Below are positions 24,001 to 30,000 of a stretch of DNA of 64,000 nt, piece by piece (the stretch's first letter is position 1; every line of letters starts with the position of its first letter). This DNA is from Endomicrobiales bacterium (GTDB lineage Bacteria > Elusimicrobiota > Endomicrobiia > Endomicrobiales > CAWCFT01). Location of the stretch: assembly GCA_963794945.1 (NCBI GenBank), contig CAWCFT010000016.1:32001-96000 (forward strand), written 5' to 3'. Made by a program: the position numbers.

Positions 24001-27000
24001 AGTGGTCGAGATCACCTTTTTAATTGTCTTATCCCAAACAGGTTCGCTGGATATCGCCGAAGATATCTCCTGCAGCACCGTCAGATCGGAAACCCTCCGC
24101 TCGAGCTCGTGGTAAAGCCTGACGTTGTCTATTATGCCGGAAGCCCTGTCGGCGATAAGTTCCAAAATCCTCAGGTCATCCTGCGTGAACGGCGAACCGA
24201 ACTTGTTGGCGACACCAAGCACCCCTATGTTCTTTTTCCCCGAGCGTAATGGCACTAGCACTAGCGAGTGCACACTAAAAAGGTTAGCAAGTATCGGTAT
24301 GGCCGCCGCTGCTTCAGTCGGATCGTTGAACATGTGGTTCTTTCCTTCCTGAAGAACCGACTCCAGCGCCTTCACTTCATTTAAATGAAAATGCAGGTGT
24401 GAAAAGTCTTTGTCTTTTATTCCGAAGAACGGCGCGCAGGGTATCATCTCGTTCGATTCCGGGACGTATAGGAACAGGCCCACTGACTGTGTGCTTAGCA
24501 GGTCCTTTATCTTGTCCACTATCATCTCGAGTATTTCTTGAAGGTTTATTTTTGTCGCCGCGTACGCTGCTATATCAGAAAGGGCCTTCATCTCCCTGAC
24601 CTTATGTATGAGGCGCGAGTTGGTCTGGATAAGCTCGCGGGTGGTTATTGAAACCTCGGTCTCCAGCCTGCGGTTGAGTTCCTGAACTCTCTCGTAAAGC
24701 TGAGAGTTGCGCAGCGCTATACCAAGATACTTGGCTAATGTAGAAATAGTATTGACCCTGTCTTCGTTGAAGAATTTCTTTTCCGGCGTCCCAACGCTGA
24801 GCACCCCGACGCATTTGGCTTCCACAAGCAGCGGTATATGCATGGAGGAATGCATACCTTCGTTTTCCAGCAGAAGCTTGTCCATGACCGAATCGGTATT
24901 CTCTAAGTCGTCATTGACTATTATAAGGCATTTCTGGTAAGCCTGACCTATCTGCCCTTCACCGGACCTTAGGTGAATGAGCTTGGCGTAATCCGGAGAG
25001 AGCCCTCTGTAGGATTTGACCCTCAAGAAACCGTCCTCTCCCGGCAGGGTTACAAAACATGCCGAATCGTGGAATTTTTTCCTTATCACATCGAGCACTA
25101 TACCGAATATCTCGTTGACCTCTATGTGCGACGTCAGGGTTTGTGACACAGAAAAAAGCATCTTGAGAGTCGCGTTAGTGTCGTAAGCTTTTTCATTGAG
25201 GCTGTTGAGCTTGAAGAACATCTCGCGCCACTCTCTGTGCTGGGCGCCGGCATCTAGGGTCGCGTTCTCATCTTTTTCAAAGCTTTCCGTGAATTTCTGC
25301 AGTTTCATTAGCGGCAGGTAAAGATGCTTACGCAGGTAGAAAGAGACTGAGGATAATACAAGCACGAGCCAAAAAACGATCGCGGCCTGCTATGATGAAC
25401 AGGTTCCTGTCCCTTGTCATCTCTTTGAAAATGAACTCCGGCGCAGGCCAGATCTTAAGCCATCCGGCTATTTTTCCGTTCTCAGCTATAGGGAGTTTTG
25501 TGAAAAGCTGCGAAATGATCTGCTCGCGTTTCTGGGGGCCCCGCGCGAAAATGATCTTGCCTTTTTCGTTCGCGACCGCCGACATTACTATTTCCTGCTG
25601 GCGTGATAATTTGTCAAGTACCGACTTGATCTGCTGGCGGTTTGGTTTTTCGGATATCATCCCGTATAGCACTTCGGTAGAGGAAGAACAGATTGGGGCA
25701 AAATATCTTGTGAGGAGCGATTGTATGTAAAGATAACCACAGCAGGCGAAAACCGCGTTTATAAGCACCAGGATGAGCGCCACGTAGGCAATATATTTAA
25801 ATATCAGCTTCTTCATTATAATTTGTGTTTCAAAAGCGTTATATCGAGAGCGAGGTTAAGGTATCTGTAGTCCTTGTTGAGCTCGGCCCAAGGAACAAGC
25901 TGAAGCGAGACCTTTTCGTCGTCCATGACCGTGGATAACAGGTTCGCAAAATCCTCGGCGTCCATTGCTGATTCCAGAGGCGGACCAAGAACTATCGCTA
26001 TCCCAACGTTGTTCGTCTTGCAAAGTTCAGTAAAGAACTGGTAGTTTATCTTCCCAGTGAACGCGTAGGCGCGCTCGAATATGCCTTCCAGCCTGAATTT
26101 CAGTTTATGCTTTTTTATAACATCGCGGAAGCGGTCTTTGATCTTTACAAGTTCCTCGTCTTTGCCCTCCGGATAGAAGAAAGCAACATCAACACTCTTC
26201 AGATTTGCCTCTGACGGGTCCCTCACCTGAGGAGCGGTGGGTTTTGGCGCGGCGGGTTTGGACTGCTGTATAACGATCAATGGCTCTGGCTCGGATTTTG
26301 CTGCGATGCGGGCTGGTTCCTGGCGCAGTGGCTCTGCAATAACGGGCGCAACAGGAGGCGTAGGCTCTTGCGCCGGCTCAGCAACAGGTATATTCATTTC
26401 AACAACTGGAGGCTGGTATACGGCTTGGGCTTTCTGGGCCGGAAACTGAGGCATAGCCAACTCTTCGGATTCTTCCACCGGAAGCAGGTCCGCCATAAGA
26501 CTGTGGACCAGCTCCATGTCCACATCCTGGTGAGTTAGCGCAGCGTACGCATTTATCCTTTTTAGGAAGCCTTCCAGTTCCCTGATATTGGATTTGAGCT
26601 TTGAGGCGATGTAGAGCAGGATATTATCGTTAAGCCTTAGCTTTTCAACTTCTTCCTTTTTCTTGAGTATCGCGACCCTCGTCTCGAGATTCGGCGATTT
26701 TATATCGGCTATCAGGCCCCATTCGAAACGTGACCGGAGCCTGTCCTCGAGAGTTGTCAGGTGTTTTGGCGGCCTGTCGGAAGTTATTATTATCTGCTTT
26801 CCACTCTGATGAAGCACGTTGAATGTATGGAAGAATTCTTCCTGCGTGGATTCAGACTCAACTAGGAACTGTATGTCGTCAACAAGCAGGAGGTCAATGT
26901 TGCGGTAGTGGTCGCGCATACGCTGAAGCTGGCCCGAACGTATGGAGTCTATAACCTCGCCCATAAATTTCTCGGTAGTAACATAGAGCACTCTCGACGC

Positions 27001-30000
27001 AGGGTTTTTCTTTCTCACGTAATGGCCAACGGCATTCATCATGTGGGTCTCGCCGAGGCCCACTCCGCCGTAAATAAAGAAAGGATTGTATATCTTGCCT
27101 GGGTTGTCAGCTACCGCCTGTGTGGTGGCGGTAAAGCGGTTATTGGGCCCGATAACGAATTCTTCGAAAGTGTACCTTGGGTTGAGCTCGAGGTCCAGAA
27201 ACCCTTCGTGCCCGTCCGACCCGGAGTATACTATCCTTTCCTGAGCCGGGTTGGCTGCCAAGGGCTGCGCCGCCAGCGCCGCTTCCCTGATCTTTGGCTC
27301 TGCTGCGTTCTCATGAAGTTTCTTTATTTCGGCGGTTTCCTGGTCAGCGGTAACGCTGCTCATGCTTCTGGCGACTTTTTCCAGGGCCGAATCAAGCTCG
27401 TTGTCTTTTGACGGGCCTTCGATTATGCCGTCCGCGCATTTATTCTTGAGGTCGACCGCCAGTTTTTTAATGGATTCTTCATTAGCATCGTAGATATACA
27501 AGCCAAAATCGTAGTCGTCTTTTTCCAGCAGGAAAGGCCTGCCTACGGTGCCAGGGATTGTATTTATCAGCGACATCAGCTCGCGTTCATCTATCTTAAG
27601 TCTCAAGAGCCATCTGTTCTTATCTTTTTCAGTTGGCGTTAAAGAAAGTTTCCATCTAGTTAGGCTCATTATGCCCCTGTTTCCTTATCCGTGGGAACGG
27701 AATCGTAAATTTTAAAAACTTGCCTGGGTTCCTGTTATTCAGCTGAGTTTATGCCTTTTAAATTGAGTGTCATATCATCCGGGTTCGTCGCCTTATCCAG
27801 CGCTTCTTCGACGGTAATCGTACCATTTTTGAACATGTTCAGCAGGTCGGCATCAAAAGTATGCATGCCGTAATACCCGCCCTGGTCTATGGCCTTGTAA
27901 ACCTCACCGAACTTGCCTTCAGCTATAAGTTTTTTTACTAAAGATGTGCCCATAAGTATCTTGGTCGCGGGCAGACGGCCCTGTCCATCCTTCTGTGTGA
28001 CTAGCCTCTGGGCAACTATACCCTTTACAACATTTGCAAACTGCGAGCGCACGGATGCCTGCTGGTGCGGAGGGTAGGAATCCACTATCCTGTCTATCGT
28101 TTGCGACGCATCCATTGTGTGGATAGTAGAAAGCACAAGATGACCGGTCTCAGCGGCCGTTATAGCGGAGGATATAGCTTCAAAGTCCCGCATCTCGCCT
28201 ATAACAACTACGTCCGGGTCCTGTTCTGAGCGCGTATTTGAGCGCGCGCGCGTAGGATTTTGTGTCGAGCCCGACTTCCCTCTGCGAGATGGACGACTTT
28301 TTGTCCTTGTGATAGTATTCTATTTGGGTCTTCAACAGTAACTATGTTGTAGCAGAAATTTTCGTTAATGTAATCGAGTATTGAGTTCATTGTCGTAGTC
28401 TTGCCGGCCCCGGTAACGCCTGTGATAAGGATGAGCCCGCGCTGGTCAGAAGCGAGTTTCTTAAGCGGTTCAGCAGGAAGGTTGAGCTCTTCAAAAGTCT
28501 TTACCTTGAGCGGCACAACCCTTAACGTCAGAGCTGTTGTTCCTCTCTGCCTGTAAACGTTTATCCTGAACCTTGAGATCTCATCAATGGAATGTGCGAA
28601 ATCGAGTTCGAGATCCGAATCGAAGGCTTTTCTCTGTTCGGGGCTCATCAGCGAATCTGCAAGTTCTTCAATGTTTTTGGCACTGAACGCATCTAGCCCC
28701 GCTGTTGTGAGTTTGCCGTTAAGGCGCAGTAGCGGCGCTGACCCACTTTTGAAATGGATATCGGATATACCTTTCTTTACCATAAGTTGAAGCAGTTCAT
28801 TTACGTTCATTTTCTCTACCTCTGCATGCTTCCCTGGCTATCACTACCGAGTTCGATGTCCCGATCCTTGAGGCTCCGGCCTTGACCATACTCAAAAGAT
28901 CACGAAGGCTCTTGATGCCTCCGGCGGCTTTTACTCCCATCGAACTTCCCACCGTTTCGCGCATAAGCCTTACATCCGAGGCTTTCGCTCCTCCTCCAGA
29001 AAACCCCGTTGAGGTTTTAACAAAATCCGCTCCTGCACTTTTCGCTGCAAGGCACGCCTTCACTTTTTCTTTTCTAGAAAGAAGGCTGGCTTCAATTATT
29101 ACCTTGAGCGTTTTGCCGCCGACGGATGACCTCACCTTTCTTATTTCATCAAGAACAAGTTCATAGTTGCCTGACTTTAGGGCCCCGATGTTAACGACCA
29201 TGTCTATTTCATCGGCGCCGTTCGAGACCGCCTCTCCGGCTTCAAAAGCCTTTGCATCAGCGGTTGAGGCGCCCAGCGGAAAACCAGCCACGGAACATAT
29301 TTTGACACCGGAACCTTTTAACAGGCCGGCGCTATACTTGACGTTGGCGGGATTTACGCAGACCGAGTGGAACCCGTATCTCCTGGCCTCGCGTGAAAAG
29401 CTTCCGTAAGTTCTGCCCGGCCGGCGCCGGGCTTGAGCAACGTGTGGTCAATGAGCTTGGCGGCGCCAGATATGTTTTTCATTTCAAATTTACTTATTTC
29501 TTTTGAGCCAGACCGCATATCCTGTTCTCTATCTCAGATATGTTCGATACCCGTTTCCTGTGCCTTTCTTCTGTGCTCGCGGGGGTCCTAAGCCAGGTGT
29601 CTATGAACCCGATGAGCCCGTCAGTAGTGGCGAACCTGCCGGGAAGACAGATTATGTTGGCGTCATTGTGCTGGGAAATAAGTTTTGCGATGTCATTATT
29701 CCAACACACCGCAGCCCGTACACCAGGGAATTTATTAGCGGTGATAGACATGCCTATTCCCGTCCCGCAGATGAGCACTCCTTTATCATACAGCCTTTTA
29801 GAAACACCCTCGGCTACAGCAGCGGCGAATTCGGTATAGTCACAGCTAGCGTTCCAGCACGATCCCATATCGGCAACTGTGTGACCGAGCCCGTGAAGAA
29901 AATCCAGCACTTTTTCCCTGTGCTCGAAACCGGCGTGGTCGCAGCCGAAAGCTATTTTCATTTCCTCTCTCCAAATCTTATCTTCCCGTAAGAAACGGGA

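Follow-up and report, generated by a model that had tools for sequence, protein, structure and literature searches.

A second DnaA-type ATPase in Elusimicrobiota lacks the DnaA-box-binding domain and ends in a domain with an Argonaute MID-like fold

The bacterial phylum Elusimicrobiota keeps, beside its canonical DnaA, a second DnaA-type motor that is conserved as strongly as the initiator and is fused to two unnamed domains. Judged by its sequences, the family is specific to this phylum, arose by duplication of dnaA and is not a replication initiator: domains I and IV are missing, a separate DnaA is present and the locus lies away from dnaA. The reading that we favour, with a probability of roughly 40%, is that members of this non-initiator family act as an ATP-gated assembly switch tied to a kinase signalling cassette. 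To our knowledge, DnaA serves as the initiator throughout the bacteria, and the relatives known so far, Hda and HdaA, are stripped-down regulators. The family was not described in the literature on DnaA in Elusimicrobia, on DnaA with Argonaute MID domains or on DnaA paralogs, among the matches listed (titles and abstract openings).

The gene was found in a window of 64,000 nucleotides from an Endomicrobiales draft genome (contig CAWCFT010000016.1, positions 32,001 to 96,000). The gene, its parts and its two neighbours are as follows, in window positions.

25816..27669, minus strand: gene of the DnaA-like ATPase (P0001), 617 aa, stop codon within the range
27370..27669, minus strand: N-terminal alpha/beta domain, residues 1-100, without a sequence family or clear structural relative
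27196..27369, minus strand: variable low-complexity linker 1, residues 101-158 (columns 101-290 of alignment A1 are gappy and unconserved)
26479..27195, minus strand: DnaA-type AAA+ module (domain IIIa and lid IIIb), residues 159-397, from PF00308, TIGR00362, identity to DnaA and the motif survey
27049..27051, minus strand: Walker A codon GAG (Glu207), Lys in the family, from the codon and comparison of homologs
26215..26478, minus strand: Pro/Ala-rich linker 2, residues 398-485, from sequence and alignment
25819..26214, minus strand: C-terminal MID-fold domain, residues 486-617, predicted four-stranded beta-alpha Rossmann-like, from AF2, VIA and hhalign
27735..28810, minus strand: pilT, upstream, broken into 28208..28810 and 27735..28193, with T2SSE matches on both pieces
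22750..25816, minus strand: membrane kinase (three GAF domains, HisKA, HATPase), downstream, divided between the ORFs 25328..25816 and 22750..25365, from ORFs and Pfam

The initial annotation had described a second DnaA-like gene devoid of both DnaA_N and the DnaA-box-binding domain IV, and this description holds. Pfam finds Bac_DnaA (PF00308, residues 162-321, E 2.1e-67), with no match to DnaA_N or Bac_DnaA_C (PF08299) in the 617-aa protein at E<=0.1, and PF08299 is carried by none of the 120 listed homologs. Scanned on their own with a limit of E<=10, the two end domains match no Pfam family better than E 0.05, and DnaA domain I was not among the matches shown from fold searches with the model of the N-terminal domain. 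BLASTP against the 461-aa canonical DnaA, which is encoded on a separate contig (C18), reproduced the reported 56% identity and its confinement to residues 159-396; this stretch is colinear in the two proteins, with one gap in 239 residues. Likewise, a profile of 48 members matched the DnaA chains among PDB sequences over profile positions 136-427 only, which agrees with the earlier statement that the likeness is limited to the AAA+ part. What is shared with canonical DnaA (TIGR00362; DnaA_N, Bac_DnaA and Bac_DnaA_C; PDB 8btg, 2z4r, 1l8q) is thus the AAA+ domain III and its lid, whereas domains I and IV are replaced by end domains of the family's own, joined to the core by long, flexible linkers. 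The protein scores 349.9 bits against the DnaA equivalog model TIGR00362, just above the cut-off of 343.9, and for this reason the sequence sources label homologs as "DnaA" or "chromosomal replication initiator protein DnaA". In Elusimicrobiota genomes, such a label can lead to errors when origins are predicted or marker genes are counted. The reported coexistence with a true DnaA is borne out across the phylum, where domain IV (PF08299) is present in 198 of 201 genomes.

The ATPase core is intact in the family. Walker A and B, sensor I, the box VII arginines and sensor II are all retained; the equivalent of E. coli K178 is kept in 47 of 48 members, and those of D235/D236, D269, R281, R285 and R334 in 48 of 48 each. 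By this alignment the family is shown to retain every residue that would be required to bind and hydrolyse ATP and to assemble head to tail in the manner of DnaA. A consistent difference from DnaA is found at the position of E. coli K243, which is basic in 27 of the 31 canonical DnaAs of the phylum and Ser or Ala in all 48 paralogs. Mean identity over the AAA+ region is 72% among the paralogs, 70% among the canonical DnaAs and 52% between the two groups, which form separate clades in a tree of the AAA+ core (support 0.59 and 0.91; 48 paralogs and 31 canonical DnaAs, with E. coli as sole outgroup, a set that cannot date the duplication). Among the PADLOC defence models, the core gave a weak match to mad8 (E 1.6e-4), and neither the end domains nor the short paralogs described below gave any.

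Since the core is constrained like that of the initiator and its interface residues are kept, direct action on DnaA would fit equally well. Hda, itself an AAA+ protein of the DnaA type, has DnaA as its target and carries an N-terminal beta-clamp-binding motif (QL[SD]LF or QLxLxL). The paralog might similarly dock through its AAA+ face on DnaA-ATP oligomers at the origin and, being without domain IV, domain I and the basic B-motif residue, cap or poison the filament, or else stimulate ATP hydrolysis in the manner of Hda. This action would be controlled by the kinase pathway or by a ligand of the MID-fold domain. We consider this role somewhat less likely than the assembly switch. It is favoured by the complete set of DnaA-DnaA interface and catalytic residues, by the identity to the genome's own DnaA, by the score over the DnaA equivalog cut-off, by the precedent of Hda and by the gene content of the genome, which has exactly two PF00308 loci and so no further protein of this kind such as Hda. 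Like Hda and HdaA (TIGR03420), the family has a DnaA-like AAA+ module without DNA-box binding and coexists with DnaA. Unlike them, it is represented here by a 617-aa protein with two extra domains, which reaches 107.7 bits against a TIGR03420 cut-off of 194.8, and the clamp-binding motif is found in 0 of 48 members. The match to PDB Hda chains in the initial annotation recurs, although at E 3e-7 with the 48-member profile and not at the earlier 2e-12, which came from another alignment. By these scores the protein is much closer to DnaA than to Hda. HdaB and Hda are treated in PMC7049699.

Also against a role at the origin, neither dnaA nor dnaN was ever adjacent to the gene in the 23 loci read; in contrast to the canonical gene, this second copy sits in a cassette in which pilT upstream and a multi-GAF kinase downstream are co-oriented with it. 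pilT occurs within three genes upstream in 16 of the 23 loci. In 14, the gene that follows directly is the GAF kinase, and in nine of these start and stop overlap by 4 or 1 nt; in the remaining nine loci the kinase does not follow directly. In the present genome the stop codon of the DnaA-like gene and the start of the kinase gene share 1 nt. The earlier statement that a GAF histidine kinase follows is correct as to position, but the kinase gene is split here. The cassette is part of a long run of sugar-phosphate and nucleoside genes, all read in one direction, that is conserved in the phylum, and its adjacencies may therefore reflect inherited gene order and not shared function. Neighbours include deoC, phosphopentomutase, purine nucleoside phosphorylase and adenine deaminase in addition to pilT, and recJ or a comM-like gene in some genomes. 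With a 1004-aa ortholog of the kinase as query, 151 of 201 genomes gave matches at E<=1e-40; paralogous kinases match throughout, so that no clean co-occurrence can be claimed.

Both end domains are also met in proteins that have no ATPase. P0181 and P0190 are complete proteins of N- and C-terminal domain only, and in 11 of 23 loci short paralogs are encoded directly upstream of the long gene, in the interval that separates it from pilT. These short paralogs and the pilT/multi-GAF kinase setting are new in this analysis. A 1097-aa form carries Leu, Lys and Lys at box VII R310, R314 and sensor I D298 and keeps both end domains, and in one gut lineage the end domains persist despite decayed ATPase motifs. 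The comparison shows the end domains to be the constant part of the family, as far as sequence can tell. A search of 1.84 billion cluster representatives recovered the C-terminal domain in no more than 83 clusters. Of the 28 scanned, 15 carry Bac_DnaA, 12 are short or fragmentary without a family and one has a spurious low-complexity match; within this sample, the domain appears restricted to the context of the DnaA-like protein and its short paralogs. It was not found in any of the 63 genomes of family f2, 62 of which keep DnaA. These findings weigh against a regulator of initiation, in that the end domains outlast the loss of the arginine finger and sensor I and occur in paralogs that have no ATPase, and in that no C-terminal domain was found in f2 although DnaA is kept there. 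If the family nevertheless acts on DnaA, it would represent a new mode of replication control; if not, the DnaA assembly engine would have been reused for signalling or scaffolding. Complex prediction for the N- and C-terminal domains gave a score of 0.00 in two runs, for which controls were not folded, and so counts neither for nor against an interaction.

The C-terminal domain was modelled by AF2 at a pLDDT of 95.6. The model is predicted to have the four-stranded Rossmann-like fold of Argonaute/PIWI MID domains, which occupy ranks 1-20 of the VIA structure ranking; the fold named in the initial annotation is thereby upheld. Lumazine synthase is placed as high as MID by Foldseek, and identity to MID domains is 8-17%. 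In contrast to the structural likeness to the MID of Argonaute/PIWI proteins (MIWI 4p1z, Drosophila Piwi 6kr6, hAgo2 7c6b, TtAgo), no Pfam or PDB sequence match to them is detectable: Pfam found no MID, TIR or receiver family in 28 sequences of the domain at E<=10, and its profile matched only a TLR2 TIR domain among PDB sequences (E 1.2). In hhalign, the domain matches a TtAgo-family (Thermaceae Argonaute) profile in the MID region only and in register, but weakly (89-94 columns, E 0.004-0.009, probability 4-8%). The score of 27 exceeds the highest obtained with 16 unrelated families (19.4) and with 30 shuffles (18.4), and is also above that of one reversal. The Argonaute profile is narrow (7, then 15 proteins, Thermaceae only), because word-indexed searches yielded Thermaceae relatives alone. 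Language-model features place the domain near Piwi/ArgoMid clusters (0.82-0.84), which we treat as a lead only. PIWI, PAZ and N domains, as found in Argonautes, are all missing from the protein, and its C-terminal domain is the closest structural look-alike of Argonaute MID yet seen outside Argonautes.

In PMC6299218, the 5'-end binding motif of MID is given as Y/H/R-K-Q-(T-N)-K, PIWI residues complete the pocket, and MID domains with substitutions such as those found here are classed as MID*, with guide binding unproven. In the hhalign register, which is of low confidence, motif position 1 is F574 (Phe in 47 of 48 members) and position 2 is L578 (Leu, Ile or Val in 48 of 48), and an acidic pair directly precedes positions 1 and 2 in 47 of 48. 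By the same register, the remaining positions may be kept: Q590 is Q in 36, E in 9 and H in 3 of 48, N605 is found in 47 of 48, and K614, off by one residue, is K or R in 38 of 48. The motif positions are more variable still in the more distant members of alignment A2. Piwi (PF02171) is over cut-off in 0 of 201 genomes of the phylum, with one weak match at E 6e-4. The proposal that the MID-like domain grips a 5'-phosphate end and aims the ATPase at ends of DNA or RNA can draw on the in-register TtAgo match, the possibly retained Gln, Asn and Lys and the language-model lead, but the replaced first two positions with their acidic pair, the missing Piwi partner, the lack of a sequence family or PDB sequence match and the equal rank of lumazine synthase make it improbable. 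5'-end binding is not supported by these sequences. Of the reading offered in the initial annotation, a DnaA-derived ATPase blind to DnaA boxes and endowed with a MID fold stands, and the targeting of 5' phosphates does not; its further proposal, that DnaA filaments are joined or capped, belongs to the possible role on DnaA weighed above. The TtAgo register match, the motif substitutions and the absence of Piwi are new in this analysis.

More speculative still, the domain could descend from the Argonaute MID and work without PIWI, with its pocket remodelled for a nucleotide or nucleic-acid end by a Phe stack, Gln, Asn, Lys and an acidic pair as a possible metal site. The ATPase would then assemble on DNA imported by type IV pili or sense its breakdown products, so that the GAF kinase would be coupled to DNA uptake and to the catabolism of deoxynucleosides. 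We hold this to be very improbable; if true, no MID at work outside Argonaute and no DnaA-type motor with a task other than replication would have preceded it.

In the assembly switch that we prefer, ATP would drive the AAA+ cores into a DnaA-like oligomer, and the oligomer would cluster the N- and C-terminal adaptor domains, alone or mixed with short paralogs. Through this assembly the protein would act as a switch or scaffold for signalling by the kinase encoded next to it. The MID-fold domain may bind its partner on a conserved face at the C-terminal strand ends (Y499, P500, G562-P563, E572-D573-F574, W594, K599 and Y601, placed by secondary-structure order), and not through a canonical 5'-phosphate pocket. 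Against this switch count the nine loci in which the kinase is not the next gene and the persistence of a kinase-like ortholog in some f2 genomes without a match to the C-terminal domain; eight f2 genomes of this kind give a long kinase match, which runs from query residue 1 to about 750 (E 1e-153 to 1e-174).

The copy in this genome deviates from the family. Its Walker A motif reads GLGETH, as reported initially, with the lysine codon changed to GAG; among the 120 listed homologs, 114 have LGKTH and one MGKTH (Lys in 115), four give no match, and LGETH occurs only here. The Glu would block ATP binding in this copy, unless it is an assembly error. Four genes within about 10 kb are broken or truncated: pilT is interrupted by two or more frame changes, whereas an intact PilT of 357-379 aa is found at the corresponding position in 15 other loci, the kinase gene is split, DeoC is without its N-terminal part and adenine deaminase without its C-terminal part. 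The cassette might thus be decaying, with a genuine Lys-to-Glu change in an inactive copy and with pilT and the kinase as pseudogenes. We find this doubtful: with 86% completeness and 5.9% contamination of the draft, four damaged genes fit assembly errors equally, and the DnaA-like gene itself has kept its full length and an unbroken frame and shares 79% identity with its nearest relative.

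The DnaA-like gene occupies one open frame:

25816..27669 (-), DnaA-like gene, 617 codons

A Pfam scan of the 617-aa product assigns residues 162-321 to the DnaA ATPase domain (E 2.1e-67) and detects neither DnaA_N nor Bac_DnaA_C, in agreement with the domain swap described in the initial annotation, where the DnaA-type ATPase is kept and these two domains are gone. The genome assembly (19 contigs, completeness 86%, contamination 5.9%) holds exactly two PF00308 loci, the second being a canonical DnaA of 461 aa on contig C18. By BLASTP the two proteins are 56% identical over residues 159-396 of the paralog, with one gap, and no match was found outside these residues. 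A profile of 48 family members matched PDB DnaA chains over the ATPase only and Hda at E 3e-7; this alignment-dependent value is the one figure of the initial annotation that was not reproduced among those repeated. The NCBIfam DnaA equivalog model scores 349.9 bits against a cut-off of 343.9, with only profile positions 33-345 covered. This narrow excess explains the label 'chromosomal replication initiator protein DnaA' borne by homologs in sources that give names.

The best 120 homologs are 43-79% identical across the full length; those with names come from metagenome bins of Elusimicrobiota/Endomicrobiales, and PF08299 occurs in none of the 120. In a 48-row alignment the family divides into five parts. 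A conserved N-terminal domain of ~100 residues is followed by a variable linker; the ATPase and its lid come next, then a Pro-rich linker, and last a strongly conserved C-terminal domain of ~130 residues (IKKHKLKF ... VLGPP ... NKDYRYLNLALDITL). Some members carry a zinc ribbon inside the Pro-rich linker; a four-cysteine form (CxxC ... CxxC, 'YDRWYCYxC') precedes the C-terminal domain in proteins P0155, P0158, P0180, P0187 and P0069. An exhaustive HMMER search of 1.84 billion representatives located the C-terminal domain in only 83 clusters, always at the C-terminus; 28 of these were scanned, giving 15 with Bac_DnaA, 12 that are short or fragmentary and match no family, and one spurious low-complexity match. 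Among ten short proteins inspected, P0181 (344 aa) and P0190 (321 aa) consist of a complete N-terminal domain, linker and C-terminal domain, with the ATPase absent.

Within the phylum, the C-terminal domain profile matches 113 of 201 genomes, strongly (E <= 1e-43) in 48 of the 113, which are spread across many families. The profile search gave no match in the 63 genomes of f2, a family of small genomes from the same order as the window. In family f20 the matches (53 of 58 genomes) are weak and come from ORFs roughly 500 to 1600 codons long. One of these, a 1097-aa ORF of a gut-type lineage (L015 4789-8082, in the one-contig 1.64-Mb genome G066), has the parts in unchanged order with a very long acidic linker of ~600 residues and a diverged ATPase, in which Walker A is kept and the box VII arginines and sensor I aspartate are lost (the equivalents of R310, R314 and D298 are Leu, Lys and Lys). 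With canonical domain IV found in 198 of the 201 genomes, the paralog is in every case an additional copy.

An alignment was made of 48 paralogs, 31 canonical DnaAs from the phylum and E. coli DnaA, in which K178, D235/D236, D269, R281, R285 and R334 are residues with functional roles. The K178 equivalent is kept in 47 of 48 paralogs, the window gene being the sole exception, and the equivalents of all the others are each present in 48 of 48. The H-motif position is Ile, as in canonical DnaAs. The two classes differ most clearly at the K243 equivalent: 27 of 31 canonical DnaAs have a basic residue there, and every paralog has Ser or Ala. This position lies in the B-motif, a stretch used for single-strand binding. 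Across the ATPase, paralogs average 72% identity to one another and canonical DnaAs 70%; between the two sets the mean is 52%, and to E. coli it is 47-49%. These levels argue that the dnaA duplication is old and that constraint on the paralog's motor is at least as strong as on the initiator's. The ATPase tree separates into two clades; with a single outgroup, it does not date the duplication.

What stays constant across the family is the pair of end domains. The DnaA motor varies: most lineages have it intact, one has a degenerate form and the short paralogs have none. This pattern favours a reading to which we give a probability of roughly 0.4, namely that ATP would gate assembly of a DnaA-type oligomer, that the oligomer would cluster the two end domains as adaptors, and that the clustered assembly would act together with the pathway of the neighbouring kinase. 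Ranked second is a direct regulator of DnaA, a role that seems possible though rather doubtful.

The C-terminal domain has no Pfam model match and no PDB sequence match. Its AF2 model (28-row alignment; pLDDT 95.6, pTM 0.89) has the order b1-a1-b2-a2-b3-a3-b4-a4, and the best Foldseek TM-scores, 0.69/0.71, are to the MIWI MID domain; Foldseek was less discriminating, with lumazine synthase and MID rows interleaved at E 6e-5 to 1e-3. A language-model look-up reached Piwi/ArgoMid clusters at only 0.82-0.84, below the level that counts. When the domain was aligned by hhalign to a narrow Argonaute profile (Thermus thermophilus Argonaute, TtAgo, from plasmid pTT27 with 7, later 13, relatives), the single match fell on TtAgo residues 360-454, the MID domain, over 89-94 columns with the strands in register (AIVLGPP on LVLTPP, SLQ on PSQ). 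The score was 26.5-27.6 (E 0.004-0.009) at a probability of only 4-8%. Controls stayed below this. The best of 30 column shuffles of the Argonaute profile scored 18.4 and the reversed profile scored 11.6. A set of 16 unrelated real families taken from the same loci, among them the alpha/beta proteins RpiB, PNP, TIM and transketolase C, gave 10.6-19.4 over 1-48 columns. Taken with the narrowness of the profile, this is modest support, not proof, for a distant common ancestry with Argonaute MID.

The initial annotation went further and proposed a DnaA-derived ATPase aimed at nucleic-acid 5' ends. Passages of PMC6299218 give the MID 5'-end motif as YKQTNK, with four core residues Y/R, K, Q and K (Y463, K467, Q478 and K506 in RsAgo), define MID* variants as those with position 1 not Y/H/R or position 2 not K/R/Y, and describe a site completed by PIWI-domain residues and a divalent cation; a metal is likewise stated in a passage of PMC6279821. 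In TtAgo, R418, K422, Q433, N449 and K457 have the motif spacing, and all five are invariant in the Argonaute alignment. From this spacing and general background we take them to be the MID motif.

Equivalents of the TtAgo residues in the hhalign register (residue in the 617-aa protein; state among 48 members)
R418: F574; Phe in 47 of 48
K422: L578; Leu 41, Ile 5, Val 2 of 48
Q433: Q590; Gln 36, Glu 9, His 3 of 48
N449: N605; Asn in 47 of 48
K457: K614, one residue off; Lys/Arg in 38 of 48

Immediately before F574 come two acidic residues, E572 and D573, a pair kept acidic in 47 of 48 members. In this tentative register, with Phe at the R418 and Leu/Ile/Val at the K422 position, the Y/H/R residue and the lysine by which a canonical 5'-phosphate pocket is defined are therefore absent. 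No Piwi match above cut-off was found in the 201 phylum genomes. 5'-phosphate binding is not supported, and the 5'-end binder, ranked third, appears improbable. Given the aromatic side chain, Gln, Asn and Lys that are still present, the domain may instead hold a remodelled binding site.

The neighbourhood was read in 23 loci, the window and 22 others across the phylum; one further stretch, ending before the gene, was left out. Sixteen of the 23 have a PilT gene no more than three genes upstream, and in 11 one or two short paralogs stand between pilT and the long gene (L016 4872-7093, L017 5338-6966, L018 5472-6179 and other loci). These have the C-terminal domain, often the N-terminal domain, and no ATPase; the window's genome has a single C-terminal domain match and hence no short paralog. 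At locus L030 a 428-aa GGDEF protein upstream of pilT (3728-5014) gives a weak partial N-terminal domain match (E 1e-4, profile positions 50-87). The co-directional cluster comprises tpiA, a PduL-type phosphotransacylase, a PilZ protein, rpiB, a TPR protein and deoC upstream, and a split transketolase, phosphopentomutase and purine nucleoside phosphorylase downstream. In two loci the downstream neighbour is RecJ; two others have a ComM-like Mg-chelatase ATPase close by. The boldest reading, a long shot in our estimate, has the MID-fold domain acting with PilT and the deoxynucleoside genes in handling DNA that the cell would import. In 14 of 23 loci the gene directly downstream encodes a membrane histidine kinase with GAF domains. 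Its start overlaps the DnaA-like stop by 4 or 1 nt in nine of the 14, the window among them. In two loci a receiver-only protein comes after the kinase. Since gene order is conserved over a long stretch, being neighbours counts for little by itself, and no other feature points to a shared operon as strongly as the overlap with the kinase gene.

The window copy itself is irregular. The Glu for Walker A lysine reported in the initial annotation is confirmed (codon GAG), and several neighbours are broken:

27735-28810 (-), pilT, broken into a 200-aa and a 152-aa ORF, each matching T2SSE
22750-25816 (-), kinase (three GAF domains, HisKA, HATPase), in two pieces, one of 162 aa (membrane) and one of 871 aa
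19329-20903 (-), adenine deaminase, ending at position 101 of 169 of the C-terminal domain profile, with an odd tail
28797-29291 (-), DeoC, 164 aa, profile positions 78-226 only, N-terminal part missing

In pilT at least two frame changes, spanning some 100 nt, fall within about 28170-28300, and intact PilT at the same place in other genomes has 357-379 aa. The kinase pieces overlap at 25328-25365, and their orthologs are single ORFs of ~1000 aa. The adenine deaminase and DeoC truncations likewise point to indel errors or gene decay, and this stretch reflects either an error-prone assembly or a decaying cassette. Elsewhere in the window, a low-G+C island (36-37% against about 49% around it) contains a type III restriction-modification pair (13459-17906 (-); ResIII helicase subunit, 908 aa; N6/N4 DNA methylase, 574 aa), which was probably acquired horizontally.
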